Origin: a bacterium | GTDB lineage: Bacteria; Patescibacteriota; Minisyncoccia; UBA6257; JAUSGH01 | Reading direction: 5' to 3' | Assembly (NCBI GenBank): GCA_030649055.1 | Contig: JAUSGH010000013.1 | Coordinates: 1 to 60,505 of the forward strand | DNA: 60,505 nucleotides | Part shown: positions 48,531-55,587 of the stretch, piece after piece | Numbering within the stretch: the stretch's first letter is position 1 | How the letters are laid out: every line of letters begins with the position of its first letter | Made by a program: the position numbers and the translations under genes | Notes under the pieces: generated by a model | What the model saw: the letters and a program-made list of their open reading frames with translations, nothing else | Told to the model about the DNA's origin: nothing | Databases searched by the model: none

Positions 48531-48809
48531 TCAGCTGGCGCTTGCCGCCTGCGCATCCTCCTTCTTTGCCCACTTTCCGACAAGCATAGCGACAACCGTC
48601 GCAAAGATCGCGTACCCGACAAGCACTGCAGGCGTCGCCTCAGCACTGAGGAACAGGGCAAAGATGGCTTTCATCGCCTCGTTCCACCCCAGCGCCGCCA
48701 CAACGCCAATCGCCGCCGCAATAGCAAGCGCCGTGCTATTACTTACCTTACGCACTTCTCCGCCCAGACGCTTCACGCCATCCACGAGATCGTCCTTCTT
48801 TTCATTCAC
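48531..48809 (-). CDS. Hypothetical small membrane protein (GC-rich cassette gene)
   Basis: 92 aa. GTG start preceded by aaggag. Two TM helices. Confidence 0.5.
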   Translation of the reverse strand: MNEKKDDLVDGVKRLGGEVRKVSNSTALAIAAAIGVVAALGWNEAMKAIFALFLSAEATPAVLVGYAIFATVVAMLVGKWAKKEDAQAASAS

Positions 48810-48886
48810 AATAAACTCCTTTCAATAGCATCGCCCCACACACGACCGAAGTCATGAGGGGGCGATGAAGATGTGCGGGCACATAG

Positions 48887-49198
48887 TTACTTGCCCGCGG
48901 GAACGGACTCGGCCGGCGCCGGAGCCGTTGCGGAGGAAACCGCCTCCAGGAGCTTCGTGAGTTCGGGCTTCGTGCGGCAGAGCAGCCACGCACCCGCACT
49001 CAAGGTCCCGACGAGCGCGAGCACAAGCATGGCACTCGTGAGCATCGTGTCCCACGTGCCCACCGACGCCTTGAAGACCTTCACGCCCTTCGCGATGAGG
49101 AAGCCGAGAAGCACCGCCACGAGGACCAGAACGACTGCGACGGCCCACTCGCCCGTACCCAGCGTTACGGCGGCGAGGAAAACCATGGTGCTATTCAT
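48887..49198 (-). CDS. Hypothetical small membrane protein (GC-rich cassette gene)
   Basis: 103 aa. SD aggagg lies 7 nt before the ATG. Three TM helices. Confidence 0.55.
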   Translation of the reverse strand: MNSTMVFLAAVTLGTGEWAVAVVLVLVAVLLGFLIAKGVKVFKASVGTWDTMLTSAMLVLALVGTLSAGAWLLCRTKPELTKLLEAVSSATAPAPAESVPAGK

Positions 49199-49308: not shown

Positions 49309-50028
49309 TTAATAACCCGAAAACTCTTCGGTTTTTATCGCGCCATCATCAACGCCCATCGCTACCAGCATCTGCCACGTTGCAGCGACCATTGCCGGCG
49401 GACCGGCGATGTAAAAACGCGCGGTTGAAAAATCCGGCGCATACTTTGCAACCATTTTTTCATCAATGCGGCCGCGCTCCCCCTTCCATGTCGGATCAAA
49501 TCCCTCCGTCAACGTCGCAATGAGTTTGAAATTTTCATTTTCCCATGCGCGCAGTTCATTTAAAAACGCGGACTCGCCGGCGGTGCGGTTGGAATAAAAA
49601 AGCGCGATGCGATGGGACAACTTTTCATGCGTCGCCCATTCAATCATGCCCCGCATTGGCGCGATGCCGATGCCGCCCGCAATCATGATAATAGGACGGT
49701 CTGATTTTTCCGGAAGCACAAATGAACCGCCGATGCCGGTGAGCCGCACTTCCGCGCCAATGGCAAGATCGCGCAAGTTGCGCTTAAAGGCACTCTTGCC
49801 ATTGCGTATCACGATCATAAATTTCTCTTTATCATGTGGCGAGCTGGCAATAGAAAGCGTGCGCGTCACTCCTCCATCGTCCCGATATTTGGGGTTCATC
49901 AACGTGATGTCTACCCATTGTCCGGCGTGAAATGAAAACTCTGCCGGCACCTCAAACCAAAACACCGTCGTGCCGTCGGCAACTTCTTTGCGTTCCCGTA
50001 AAACGATTTTTGTATCTCCGGCTTCCAT
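49309..50028 (-). CDS. Ferredoxin-NADP reductase-like FAD/NAD(P)-binding oxidoreductase
   Basis: 239 aa. RTLSIASSP (RxYS-type FAD motif) and GGIGIAPM (NAD(P) motif). A TATAAT hexamer lies 6 nt before the ATG; no SD. Confidence 0.8.
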   Translation of the reverse strand: MEAGDTKIVLRERKEVADGTTVFWFEVPAEFSFHAGQWVDITLMNPKYRDDGGVTRTLSIASSPHDKEKFMIVIRNGKSAFKRNLRDLAIGAEVRLTGIGGSFVLPEKSDRPIIMIAGGIGIAPMRGMIEWATHEKLSHRIALFYSNRTAGESAFLNELRAWENENFKLIATLTEGFDPTWKGERGRIDEKMVAKYAPDFSTARFYIAGPPAMVAATWQMLVAMGVDDGAIKTEEFSGY

Positions 50029-50050
50029 ACATTGATTATATCCTCTTTAC

Positions 50051-50492
50051 AAAAAGAAAAGGGCCCGTCATCACAAGGACAACGGGCCGCTTTCATGCTA
50101 GGGTGGCATCTCTGCCGCCTCCTAATTGAGAACCAAAGAATGAGTTGAAAGCGAGGGTAGGTCGGGTGGCAGATCTGCGCTCTGCGGTAAAGCGCGGCGC
50201 GATCAATGCTCTTCCCGGCCTACCCTTGGGCTGGCACTCTATCGTCTAAGAAGTCTGACATTCCTCTCACGAGATCTGATGAATCCCGCAAGAAGTTTGC
50301 CGTTCCGCTTAAACAACAGCGTGTGCGCCCGAAGCTTGGGGAGGCAGACGTGCGCGTTGGCTGCTCTCAGCACATCAGCGATATTGAACCACCATGCTTT
50401 CGCCGGTGGCTACACCACCAAATGTGCCTGGCAATACCCGCCACAATCGCCTGCCTCCCATAAGCACTCGTTTTTCCCTTTCACTCTTACTA
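50051..50492 (-). ncRNA. Orphan ~440-nt transcript unit with no credible ORF (unclassified structured RNA candidate)
   Basis: Consensus promoter at 50499..50527. Intrinsic terminator at 50051..50089 (GGCCCGT...ACGGGCC followed by TTTTCTTTTT). Long-range helices 50338-50347/50451-50460 and 50154-50166/50214-50226. Only short, implausible ORFs on either strand. Confidence 0.5.
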
Positions 50493-50498
50493 ACAGCC

Positions 50499-50527
50499 AG
50501 TATAGCAGAGGCGGGCGAGGTTGTCAA
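50499..50527 (-). promoter_or_regulatory. Consensus sigma70 promoter driving the 50051..50492 transcript
   Basis: Minus strand: TTGACA (50527-50522), 17-nt spacer, TATACT (50504-50499). Confidence 0.65.
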
Positions 50528-50550
50528 TACCCCCCTGAAGTCAACGAGGA

Positions 50551-50581
50551 AAGGCCGTACCACACTTGTGGTACGGCCTTT
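50551..50581. terminator. 13-bp perfect hairpin downstream of the aminotransferase gene
   Basis: aaggccgtaccac-actt-gtggtacggcctt. Confidence 0.6.
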
Positions 50582-50597
50582 GATACGAACGTGTATG

Positions 50598-51887
50598 CTA
50601 CTTCGCCATGCAGCGACGAAGAATCTTGATGCCTTTCGCAAGGTCCTTCGTACTGATGTTCACCGGCACCATACACCGAAGCGCTAGTTCCCCCGCGGAA
50701 ATGATGGACACTCCGAGCTCCGGGTGCTTCCGCGCCCGTTCCGCCACAGCATTGCGCTCTTCTACCGTCCGGAACACGATGCGCCGCATGAGCCCGAGTC
50801 CTTCCGGAGCGAACTCCGCAAGCAGTACGATGCGCCTCGTGAGGTCTTCCCTGTTGAGCGCTTCCAACTGCTCAATGATGTTGAATGCCGCTTCCGTGGC
50901 AAAGGCATTCCCACCAAAGGTATTGGAGTGCTCCCCGGGAATCGGGAAGTCAAACTCCGCCCGCGCAATCGTTGCGCCGATGGGAGCACGCCCTCCCCCC
51001 AACGCCTTGCTGAGGCAGATGATGTCCGGTTCCAGGAAGCCGTCTCCGACCCTGAAGTACTCGCAGGCGAACATCCTGCCGGTCCTCATCATGCCGGTCT
51101 GCACTTCGTCCACCACGAGGTAAACATCGTGCTTCCGGCACTCCGCGACGAGCAGTTGCAGGCAGTCCTCGTCCATAACGCGGATGCCGCCCTCGCCCTG
51201 AATGAGCTCCACAAACATCGCCGTCGCATCCGCGAAGGGCTGCAATTTCAGCATCTCCTTGAATGCGGCGATGCTCTCCGGATTGTTACGCTCGGGGAAC
51301 GGGAGGTGCCGAACAGGAATTGCCCGATCCTCTTTCACCTTCATACCCACCGAGAGGTCGCCGCGGTCCAGGAAGAACGCCTCGGTGTGCTTCTTCTTGC
51401 TGCAGTTGAGCGACAGCGCGAAGCCCGTGCGTCCGTGGAACGCTCCTCCGAACGCGCAGAACACCCGCTTCCCCCGGAGACGCTCTTCCGCTTCGTCGCC
51501 GTACACCGCCATGTACTCATGGTAGCGGCGTGCCAGGCACATCTTCACCGCCGCTTCCACGCTCTCGGCGCCCGAGTTGCCGAAGAACACCTTTTTCGGG
51601 TGCTTGCCGGGCGTGATAGCGCAGAGCTTCTCTGCCAGCTGCACCTCGGCGTTGTTGAACCACTCGTTGCCGGGAATCATGAGGAGCTTCCCGTCGTGCC
51701 CAAGCGGCGTCACACCGATGCCGGAGCAGAAGTCAATGAGCTCCACCTGCTGCCCGCTTTCCGCGAGCACGCCCCAGATGCGCGACCCTTCCCCATAAAG
51801 CGGAACGAGGTCGCTGTCGATCGTCGTGTTCACGACGTGCTTCTTGCCGAGGCGATAGATCTCGGCGGGACTGAGCTGACGCAGCAT
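50598..51887 (-). CDS. Class III pyridoxal-phosphate-dependent aminotransferase (GC-rich cassette gene)
   Basis: Start MLRQLSP (51887) preceded by aaggag. DEVQTGMMRTGRMFACEY and LSKALGGG (PLP lysine). Promoter at 51938..51966. Confidence 0.8.
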   Translation of the reverse strand: MLRQLSPAEIYRLGKKHVVNTTIDSDLVPLYGEGSRIWGVLAESGQQVELIDFCSGIGVTPLGHDGKLLMIPGNEWFNNAEVQLAEKLCAITPGKHPKKVFFGNSGAESVEAAVKMCLARRYHEYMAVYGDEAEERLRGKRVFCAFGGAFHGRTGFALSLNCSKKKHTEAFFLDRGDLSVGMKVKEDRAIPVRHLPFPERNNPESIAAFKEMLKLQPFADATAMFVELIQGEGGIRVMDEDCLQLLVAECRKHDVYLVVDEVQTGMMRTGRMFACEYFRVGDGFLEPDIICLSKALGGGRAPIGATIARAEFDFPIPGEHSNTFGGNAFATEAAFNIIEQLEALNREDLTRRIVLLAEFAPEGLGLMRRIVFRTVEERNAVAERARKHPELGVSIISAGELALRCMVPVNISTKDLAKGIKILRRCMAK

Positions 51888-52034: not shown

Positions 52035-52265
52035 ATGAACGACGCAATCGAGGAGCCGACACTGCTTTGTCCGCCGGAACAGTGCGGAAATTGCGGCACT
52101 CCAGCTGATCTTAGCAGCAGCACGCATACGAACGTAGAAAACTGGCGCTGCCCTGGGTGCATGAAGAAATGTTGCAACGCCTGCTTCAAGCCCAACTACG
52201 ACGGCGACGGCAGTACATTCTTCTGCCCCAACCCGAGCTGCAAGAAGCTGCTCAAGTTCCCGTAG
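52035..52265 (+). CDS. Cys-rich zinc-ribbon-like small protein (GC-rich cassette gene)
   Basis: 76 aa. SD ggagga. CPPEQCGNC, CPGC, CCNAC, CPNPSC. An extended -10 (TGATAGAAT) lies upstream. Confidence 0.55.
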   Translation: MNDAIEEPTLLCPPEQCGNCGTPADLSSSTHTNVENWRCPGCMKKCCNACFKPNYDGDGSTFFCPNPSCKKLLKFP

Positions 52266-55513: not shown

Positions 55514-55587
55514 GAGTTAGCTTTTAGCTGATAGCTTATAGCTTATAGGAAAACCTTGAAGTAAGTCAAGGGCTGATTCGGTGGGTT

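Follow-up and report, generated by a model that had tools for sequence, protein, structure and literature searches.

A candidate structured-RNA family of narrow distribution upstream of an FNR-like reductase gene in Vogelbacteria-like Parcubacteria

Contig JAUSGH010000013.1 (GenBank assembly GCA_030649055.1), from a patescibacterial genome, carries about 440 nt of sequence between a promoter and a terminator in which only short open reading frames (ORFs) occur, and the locus raises the question of what such a transcript might be. The stretch lies between the genes for a class-III aminotransferase and an FNR-like flavoprotein reductase. The whole of the analysed DNA, 60,505 nt, is referred to as the window; coordinates are positions in it, and the RNA element is read on the minus strand, from 50527 to 50051. 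A sequence-only reading had proposed an orphan structured RNA, and this proposal gained from the comparison with relatives, in which the element is conserved with compensatory changes (in hairpin H3 and the stem of hairpin H2) and no decayed ORF is found. The element represents a new bacterial structured-RNA family, absent from Rfam 15 and from the literature searches. Our preferred interpretation, to which we assign a probability of about 0.45, is that it specifies an independent and probably abundant structured RNA, most plausibly one that binds protein and/or the ribosome.

The signals that delimit the transcript are summarized in Table 1. The promoter combines an 11/12 match to the consensus with a TG extension and, on sequence grounds, is a strong, near-consensus promoter of the sigma-70 type. 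Promoters of this kind (TTGACA-17-TAYAMT, at most one mismatch) number seven in the window against 0.45 expected, and the promoter is found in all homologues, with the full form TTGACAA-N14-GCTAYACT-N6-TAG. At the other end, the terminator stem has 11 pairs, seven of them G-C, and is followed by CTTTTCTTTT; the sequence downstream of the hairpin is CUUUUCUUUUU, and 10 nt further on stands the TATAAT of the next gene, so placed that a transcript ending at the terminator stops about 25 nt upstream of that gene. Terminator-like sites in the region are not above chance in number (four against 3.9 expected); each homologue has a hairpin with a U tract in the corresponding position, and four different stem sequences occur there. 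The promoter, the hairpin terminator (placed at 50089-50051) and the TATAAT 6 nt before the ATG of the next gene had all been recognized in the sequence-only reading, and each was confirmed. The same reading was right that the ORFs in between are all short, and it misplaced by one position the start of the longest, a 28-codon ATG ORF that begins at 50461 (not 50462) and is not conserved in relatives.

Table 1. Positions of features at the RNA locus in the window, and versions of the element and its mini-ORF in related loci (L numbers).
Feature	Position	Strand	Remarks
Promoter, TTGACA-17 nt-TATACT with TGC extension	50499..50527	-	consensus score 11/12
Likely transcription start	50492-50490	-	downstream of promoter TATACT
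Purine-rich 5' leader (UAGUAAGAGUGAAAGGGAAAAAC...)	50460..50493	-	candidate 5' strand of closing helix
Hairpin H2, basal stem GGGAGGCAGGCG/CGUCUGCCUCCC	50338..50459	-	19 pairs, covariation
Hairpin H3, ~100 nt, irregular, symmetric A-rich internal loops	50228..50330	-	39 pairs, covariation
Hairpin H4, basal stem AGGGUAGGCCGGG/CCCGACCUACCCU	50154..50226	-	inner GAUCGCG..hairpin
Pyrimidine-rich 3' segment (CGCUUUCAACUCAUUCUUUGGUUCUCAAUUA)	50123..50153	-	candidate 3' strand of closing helix
GGAGG (50122-50118), 8 nt, AUG CCA CCC UAG (50109-50098)	50098..50122	-	Shine-Dalgarno-led Met-Pro-Pro-stop; mini-ORF of the window
Intrinsic terminator	50051..50094	-	A-rich lead-in, stem 50088-50062, U tract to 50051
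TATAAT (50040-50035), 6 nt, ATG (50028)	50026..50040	-	leaderless-type; belongs to FNR-like gene
FNR-like flavoprotein reductase gene	49309..50028	-	239 aa; FAD_binding_6 + NAD_binding_1 (Pfam)
Perfect 15-bp palindrome	50550..50581	-	ends class-III aminotransferase gene; between that gene and RNA promoter
Class-III aminotransferase gene	50598-51887	-	upstream of RNA; Aminotran_3 (Pfam)
L001/L002/L014 (GCA_900218215.1 and others)			element ~700 nt; L001 mini-ORF AUG CCG CCC UAG
L003			element ~390 nt; mini-ORF MHLKR-stop
L008/L013			3' end of element lost at contig end
L010			5' 50 nt of element only
L015			element ~570-580 nt; mini-ORF MRPRNA-stop, via 1-nt deletion
L016			element ~570-580 nt; mini-ORF AUG CCG CCU UAA
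L017/L018			element ~750 nt; L017 mini-ORF AUG CCG CCC UGA

Contigs of relatives were obtained via homologues of the two flanking proteins. The nearest named homologues of the aminotransferase are from Candidatus Vogelbacteria and other Patescibacteria, and the closest overall are unnamed metagenomic proteins. Six further versions of the RNA, 390-750 nt in length, were retrieved from related Vogelbacteria-like Parcubacteria contigs, and the element is single-copy in the window and in every locus. A seventh lineage is seen indirectly through P0125, an FNR-like protein of 301 aa that has been wrongly extended through the 3' domain and terminator of the RNA, and the extra residues of which back-translate to CAAAUCCACGG..GUACCUUGUUGG..CAAUUCGGAGG..AUG. 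Gene callers also misplace the start of the FNR-like gene in L001/L002, where it is given as 171 aa (L001 6317-6832). The limits of the family appear in more distant loci: one with a 57%-identity aminotransferase (L005) has no such spacer, and at the loci of 49%-identity FNR-like orthologues (L019-L022) a Rieske gene stands in place of the RNA. A collection of genome contigs searched with the FNR-like protein returned two unrelated Pseudoalteromonas loci only. Among viral contigs, a DNA pattern of the promoter plus 5' end gave two phage matches, both rejected as false positives, and two internal RNA motifs had no match; a tightened version of the promoter/5'-end pattern recovered L001 and L008 again from metagenome contigs and nothing further. 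Patterns for the hairpin modules, with mismatches allowed, have no match anywhere in the 60-kb window, nor does any part of the RNA have a second copy there; in all loci the module is restricted to the RNA, and a dispersed repeat resembling repetitive extragenic palindromes or miniature inverted-repeat transposable elements (MITEs) was rejected on a search that covered these 60 kb and about 9 kb per relative. Judged from these comparisons, the RNA family is real, absent from Rfam and of narrow distribution, being confined as far as sampled to one Vogelbacteria-like Parcubacteria lineage.

Two observations concern the edges of the element. Contigs from several independent assemblies end inside it or at its edge (the ends of L008 at 2064, L010 at 1938 and L009 at 1933, and the start of L017), and breaks inside the RNA are consistent with strain-level module variation disrupting assembly graphs. 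The lineage of L009, L010 and L017 carries an inverted-repeat element of about 80 nt (CGTTAGAAGTCGCCC...GGGCGGYCTACTTCTAACG) directly upstream of the -35 box of the RNA (L010 1775-1860; L009 1868-1933; L017 1-23), bordered by TTGAC at either end; it has the look of a small MITE-like insertion that duplicated its target.

The predicted fold of the RNA is multi-branched and unusually stable. The minus strand reaches a minimum free energy of -208.7 kcal/mol (z -9.55 against dinucleotide shuffles, 0/100 of which fold as well), and the plus strand only -169.3 kcal/mol (z -4.46); homologues give z values of -8.89 (L016) and -5.39 (L003). This strand asymmetry, together with the many G-U pairs, indicates that the minus strand is the functional one and points to selection on the RNA. 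In hairpin H2, over six sequences, 92.9% of the cells of the 19-pair basal stem are paired and seven pairs have changed on both sides, as where AGGCAG/CUGCCU of the window becomes AAGUCGG/CCGACUU in L008; its covariation score is reached by 0/500 shuffles, and slid controls are about 50% paired. The tip of H2 is variable, and holds a GCGAAAGC tetraloop hairpin as well as alternative GGUGG/CCACC/GGUGG pairings. Hairpin H3, available as four distinct sequences, has 97.4% of cells paired over its 39 pairs, six of which have changed on both sides and 15 on one side only; the covariation score of 0.385 compares with 0.277 in shuffles, 0/500 of which attain it, and slid controls show 36-53% pairing. 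This hairpin includes a GGAAYGKCRAACYUCUU quasi-repeat, present twice. Of the 10 pairs in the basal stem of H4, one has changed on both sides and several have a change on one side only, and relatives carry an additional branch of about 50 nt; both here and in the terminator the sequences change and the pairing is kept.

Most of the structural hints in the sequence-only reading were upheld by these analyses. The long-range helix GGGAGGCAG/CTGCCTCCC corresponds to arms of 12 nt at 50339-50350 and 50448-50459 that are 92% complementary, the 13-bp helix of 50154-50166 with 50214-50226 was confirmed, and the GGTGG/CCACC/GGTGG triple is present at 50389-50393, 50405-50409 and 50415-50419. What had been described as a segment like CR-I of RNase P proved instead to be the 3' strand of the covarying hairpin H3, and not a P4 element. 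Where the sequences can be aligned, then, the RNA structure is under selection, and the covariation statistics are supportive, not conclusive, because the sequences are few and related.

A conserved frame surrounds this folded body. All versions keep the promoter, a purine-rich 5' leader, a pyrimidine-rich 3' stretch, GGAGG-N6-8-AUG, the terminator and the FNR-like gene. The leader is conserved in eight sequences as UAG-N-AWGWG..GG.GAAAA, and the consensus of the pyrimidine-rich stretch is (GUACC)UU..UUG.UY..CAAUUN, followed by GGAGG. When the RNA was truncated before the terminator and subjected to ensemble folding in six homologues, the 5' leader paired with the 1-20 nt 5' of GGAGG in four of them (window, L001, L015 and L003; p 0.6-0.86); L016 and L017 have a 3' segment like that of L015, but local alternatives compete with the closing helix. 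The partners predicted for the window by ensemble folding and duplex prediction are AAAGGG or GAGUGAAAG with CUUUCAACUC, and those of the other lineages are GAGGUR..GAAWG with YGKUUY..UACCUU. A helix that closes the molecule between its 5' and 3' parts is therefore likely according to these predictions. An imperfect closing helix between 50476-50488 and 50136-50157, suggested earlier, stands only in a shorter form (50146-50154 with 50475-50483), and the ensemble pairs the leader with 50154-50142.

The remainder of the RNA varies between lineages. Variable parts are the tip of H2, the extra branch of H4 and an extra 5' domain (CCGGUGUGUAGCCGG and a GC-rich hairpin) that occurs in relatives and is absent from the window copy. 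A hairpin module, CAAAUCCAYGGYGUGYGCCRUGG, is present in zero to two copies, with inserts between them, at the position of the pyrimidine-rich 3' segment. Hairpins with a YGUGUR loop number one to four per RNA, and in most homologues two to four against at most one expected. In L017 and L003, H3 and H4 have given way entirely to unrelated hairpins, and the body of L003 has long A-rich loops. Pairs of the hairpin CAAAUCCACGGYGUGYGCCGUGG were seen to flank unrelated inserts, each a hairpin of about 100 nt, at the same site in L001 (5821-5960) and L017 (561-680), while the window has the 'empty' site (GCUUUCAA joined to CUCAUUC at about 50146); the arrangement suggests a recurrent hotspot of insertion with duplication inside the RNA.

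Just before the terminator lies a three-codon ORF, Met-Pro-Pro-stop, preceded by a Shine-Dalgarno (SD) sequence. It is the sole SD-led ORF common to the versions, in which it comprises three to six codons; GGAGG and AUG are invariant in 6/6 homologues, at a spacing of 6-8 nt. Met-Pro-Pro-stop itself is found in four of the six, with the stops UAG, UAG, UAA and UGA and the codons CCA or CCG and CCC or CCU. These four versions differ at four sites, and every change is synonymous or preserves the stop. About 20% of single changes would keep Met-Pro-Pro-stop, which gives a chance of about 0.002, a post-hoc estimate to be set beside the two lineages that lose the peptide. The mini-ORF lies in a local hairpin (GGCGGCA/UGCCACC) that masks the SD, which is mostly paired in ensemble folding, and two of the changes (CCG to CCA and CCU to CCC) weaken this hairpin. 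Each version ends 0-10 nt upstream of the terminator stem, the Met-Pro-Pro versions with the stop codon 9-10 nt before the G-C stem. Both the formation of a Pro-Pro bond and termination after Pro are slow, EF-P-dependent reactions. As a ribosome at the stop would reach no further than the edge of the G-C stem, and most of the SD is paired, a direct blockade of the terminator by the ribosome is possible but not compelling. ORFs behind the SD-like 5' leader (GUG, CUG or UUG starts, 7-31 codons) were rejected, as their length and sequence are not conserved. A protein-coding gene or pseudogene was likewise rejected, with only short ORFs present and module indels disrupting every longer frame between homologues.

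In all seven loci the RNA is followed directly, after about 25-40 nt and in the same orientation, by the FNR-like gene. This gene has no SD, and its own -10 box is conserved 6-7 nt before the ATG (TATAAT-N6-ATG in the window, L001, L016 and L017; TATGAT or TACGAT-N7-ATG in L015 and L003). Most genes of the window also lack an SD, and in many a TAnnnT box stands exactly 6 nt upstream of the ATG (e.g., at the minus-strand gene starts 26451, 40853, 58325, 7145, 48371 and 50028), so that leaderless mRNAs seem to be the rule in this genome. A minority of genes have the full TTGACA-17-TAYAMT promoter, a 5' untranslated region (UTR) of 30-95 nt and a strong SD of the GGAGG type, and two classes, leaderless and leadered-with-SD, can be read from these signals as coexisting. 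No antiterminator was detected in the RNA: the 5' arm of the terminator forms upstream duplexes no better than shuffled arms do, and its best sites lie at non-homologous positions. The proposal of a stand-alone RNA rather than a leader is strengthened by this negative result and by TATAAT-N6-ATG being a normal gene start here. The FNR-like gene is part of a block with a membrane protein of about 100 aa and DUF5654 (48531-49198 in the window, minus strand) that is conserved in L003 and L015-L017 where the sequence reaches, and this pair of small membrane proteins may have a functional link with either the RNA or the reductase.

Known RNA families were searched for widely. At gathering thresholds, Rfam 15 finds two tRNAs and nothing else in the whole 60-kb window, and ARAGORN finds there only tRNA-Glu and tRNA-Val, and no tmRNA. 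A permissive Rfam 15 scan of 49900-50700 (E up to 10, permissive filters) gave no match inside the RNA, its weak hits falling solely on the terminator hairpin of the aminotransferase gene, and no match was found in the RNA of the six homologous loci. The earlier failure to match the element to known families by eye is thus borne out by covariance models. RNase P RNA was rejected in the light of these scans and of the H3 strand described above, tmRNA on the results of both programs, and 6S RNA and SRP RNA on the scans and the multi-branched fold. Known riboswitches and T-box leaders were rejected as well, with no aptamer match in the window or in the six loci; the body, where an aptamer would lie, is the most variable part of the family. 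There was no match to the Rfam models of OLE, ROOL, GOLLD, raiA or HEARO, which were set aside. TRF found no tandem repeats, and a type III toxin-antitoxin RNA was rejected on the lack of a tandem array and on the domains of the downstream gene. A sponge of the CsrB/Rsm type was rejected on its GGA content (seven motifs in the window RNA against 8.6 expected; 5-13 per RNA against 8-16 expected from composition across the versions). A blastn search against a phage collection gave no match, and no RNA of this sort was found described for Patescibacteria or Parcubacteria in the literature searches.

How might such a molecule work? If the RNA is an independent one, a strong sigma-70-type promoter would start the transcript and the intrinsic terminator would end it before the FNR-like gene, which would be expressed from its own leaderless-type promoter. 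The purine-rich 5' leader would pair with the pyrimidine-rich segment near the 3' end and close the molecule; 3' of this helix would come the hairpin-masked GGAGG and AUG with the mini-ORF, then the terminator. This frame would enclose a fast-evolving cargo of long hairpins, including one to four with YGUGUR loops, and the RNA would act as a scaffold or decoy that binds protein and/or the ribosome, and not as a ligand-sensing leader. The mini-ORF probably engages ribosomes, and this engagement may tune the stability or activity of the RNA. A protein- or ribosome-binding role is suggested by the recurring YGUGUR-loop hairpins and by the invariant SD plus AUG. Several findings weigh against this interpretation. 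In L017 and L003 the H2-H4 body is swapped for unrelated hairpins, with FNR-like proteins that are 68-77% identical, and RNAs with a specific three-dimensional core do not usually undergo such replacement. The window copy has a single hairpin of the YGUGUR type. The other six TTGACA-17-TAYAMT promoters of the window all drive a 5' UTR of 30-95 nt, an SD and an ORF, which makes the RNA transcript look like a leadered mRNA. Finally, the link between the RNA and the FNR-like gene persists in L015, with EamA as the upstream neighbor, and in L016, with another gene in that place, homology in these loci beginning exactly at the -35 box, and constant linkage despite different upstream neighbors fits cis regulation.

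A cis-regulatory role accordingly remains a serious rival to a stand-alone RNA. It would take the form of a translation-sensing attenuator of the FNR-like gene, in which most transcripts stop at the terminator unless a ribosome intervenes: a ribosome on GGAGG would pause at Met-Pro-Pro-stop against the terminator and polymerase would read into the FNR-like gene, while the upstream folded domain and the closing helix would gate the masked SD. Besides the promoter class and the invariable linkage in seven loci, this would account for conserved RNA ends around an unconserved body, for the invariant GGAGG and AUG, for a pattern of mini-ORF changes that spares the peptide or stop even where two of them break hairpin pairs, and for the constant closeness of the mini-ORF to the terminator stem; the leaders of Salmonella mgtA and mgtCBR, regulated by the proline-codon ORFs mgtL and mgtP, provide a precedent. 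It is nevertheless an unlikely explanation, though not a weak one, in view of the undetectable antiterminator, a stop codon from which the ribosome only abuts the G-C stem (and a distance that ranges over 0-10 nt among homologues), an SD buried in a stable hairpin, a downstream gene with its own leaderless-type promoter and no SD, so that read-through transcripts may translate poorly, an ORF other than Met-Pro-Pro in two of six homologues, and 49%-identity orthologues that have no such leader. Rather doubtful is a broader proposal, that of a modular RNA class of the candidate phyla radiation (CPR) in which the frame (closing helix, masked SD, Met-Pro-Pro-stop minigene and terminator) would couple the state of the ribosome to the fate of the hairpin cargo or to read-through into the leaderless redox gene, the minigene serving, on this model, as a minimal EF-P-dependent peptide. 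If true, an organism whose translation is mostly of leaderless mRNAs would possess an RNA device that senses the ribosome and does without an RNA antiterminator. It is improbable that translation of Met-Pro-Pro-stop is the function in itself, under the control of a long structured 5' UTR and without consequence for the FNR-like gene; the minigene might then, for instance, sense or absorb EF-P, tRNA-Pro or peptidyl-tRNA, in the manner of the bar minigenes of phage lambda. A strong promoter, a closing helix that ends beside the SD, and the invariance and synonymous changes already cited would suit this, but L015 and L003 have other peptides, the SD is masked, and the long covarying hairpins are left unexplained. 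We give an equally small chance to a functionless transcribed spacer that accumulates or exchanges stable hairpins, or to the remnant of a decayed small gene. Large gains and losses of modules among close relatives, duplicated CAAAUCCACGG..hairpins flanking the inserts of L001 and L017, assemblies that break inside the element and the narrow distribution all agree with such a spacer, but not the conservation of a near-consensus promoter, the retention of 5' leader, 3' segment and SD/AUG in all versions, the compensatory changes that preserve H2 and H3, the confinement of the modules to this site, or the absence of a shared ORF remnant among homologues. It is very improbable, lastly, that the RNA is a known one in highly diverged form (RNase P RNA, tmRNA, 6S, SRP RNA, a riboswitch or T-box, or OLE/ROOL/GOLLD/raiA). 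The likeness to these families is superficial (the GAGAGGAAUGUCAGAC segment, T-loop-like UUCAAAU strings and size), and against such membership stand the Rfam and ARAGORN results, the CR-I-like segment being one strand of a covarying hairpin, and a core that is not conserved even within the RNA's own family.

The window also has other features. An uncalled small gene between two larger ones (38298-37931, minus strand) has the promoter TTGACT-17-TATACT (38298-38270), the SD AAAGAGGTGAGTG, a terminator at about 37968-37931, and an ORF (38235-38029) for 68 aa that are hydrophobic in the C-terminal half. Another small gene of the leadered kind (35576-35277, minus strand), with the promoter TGGACA-17-TATAAT and the SD TTGGAGGAAAG, lies just downstream of a 1487-aa gene on the opposite strand, and its ORF (35516-35277) specifies a hydrophobic product of 79 aa. 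An AAGCT-based repeat, TATAAGCTATAAGCTATCAGCTAAAAGCTAACTC, directly precedes the ATG of ribosomal protein S12 (55514-55560, minus strand), with similar AAGCT-rich stretches before EF-G, and the str operon may have in it a common signal for regulation or initiation. A conserved cysteine-rich ORF of 75-76 aa (52035-52265, plus strand; L001 3216-3443), with CxxC pairs resembling a zinc ribbon, occupies the opposite strand in the interval from EF-G to the aminotransferase; it has no Pfam hit in the window and a faint IBR hit in L001.

To our knowledge, almost nothing has been reported on the regulatory and structural RNAs of Patescibacteria (CPR), in which RNA annotation rests on Rfam models built from other phyla. 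An RNA of 0.4-0.75 kb that is supported by covariation and fixed beside one redox gene offers an entry point to large CPR RNAs; the very narrow range in which it has been seen to date limits its importance. It raises the questions of whether bacteria with reduced genomes use large RNAs of their own, how an RNA keeps a conserved frame while swapping its internal hairpins, and whether ribosomes are sensed through a three-codon Met-Pro-Pro-stop ORF. The coexisting leaderless and leadered-with-SD classes should also be useful for gene calling in these genomes.

Several known systems resemble the element in part. The mgtL and mgtP attenuators share with it a long structured leader, a short SD-led ORF with consecutive Pro codons and a terminator before the gene, but the window RNA has no antiterminator, its ORF has three codons and lies 3' of the structured part, its body is variable, and the downstream gene has its own leaderless-type promoter. 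CsrB/RsmZ and CrcZ are, like it, stand-alone RNAs of 350-450 nt with a strong promoter and a terminator, a variable number of hairpins that bear a recurring loop motif, and fast evolution; the window RNA, in contrast, is not enriched in GGA, and its recurring motif is the YGUGUR loop, present only one to four times. In the 6S RNA (ssrS)-ygfA pair a non-coding RNA gene is also kept directly upstream of one protein gene, but 6S RNA is a rod with a central bubble, whereas the window RNA is multi-branched, two to four times longer and without a match to the 6S model. The type III system ToxI-ToxN has the same order of promoter, non-coding RNA, terminator and protein gene, and differs in its tandem repeats and in a protein that is an endoribonuclease, not an FAD/NAD-binding reductase. 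OLE, ROOL and GOLLD are large 'ornate' bacterial non-coding RNAs (PMC12286853), and the raiA motif RNA is gene-linked yet independent (PMC10861870, PMC5737381). Compared with these four, the window RNA is represented by about seven sequences from one Parcubacteria lineage rather than by hundreds to thousands, and its body is not conserved, unlike their intricate conserved cores, and it carries an SD-led three-codon ORF. It resembles them in being structured, several hundred nt long and equipped with a promoter and terminator of its own; in common with raiA RNA, it is the constant neighbor of one gene without clearly being its leader; and as with OLE, small membrane-protein genes follow in the locus (here a 103-aa protein and DUF5654).

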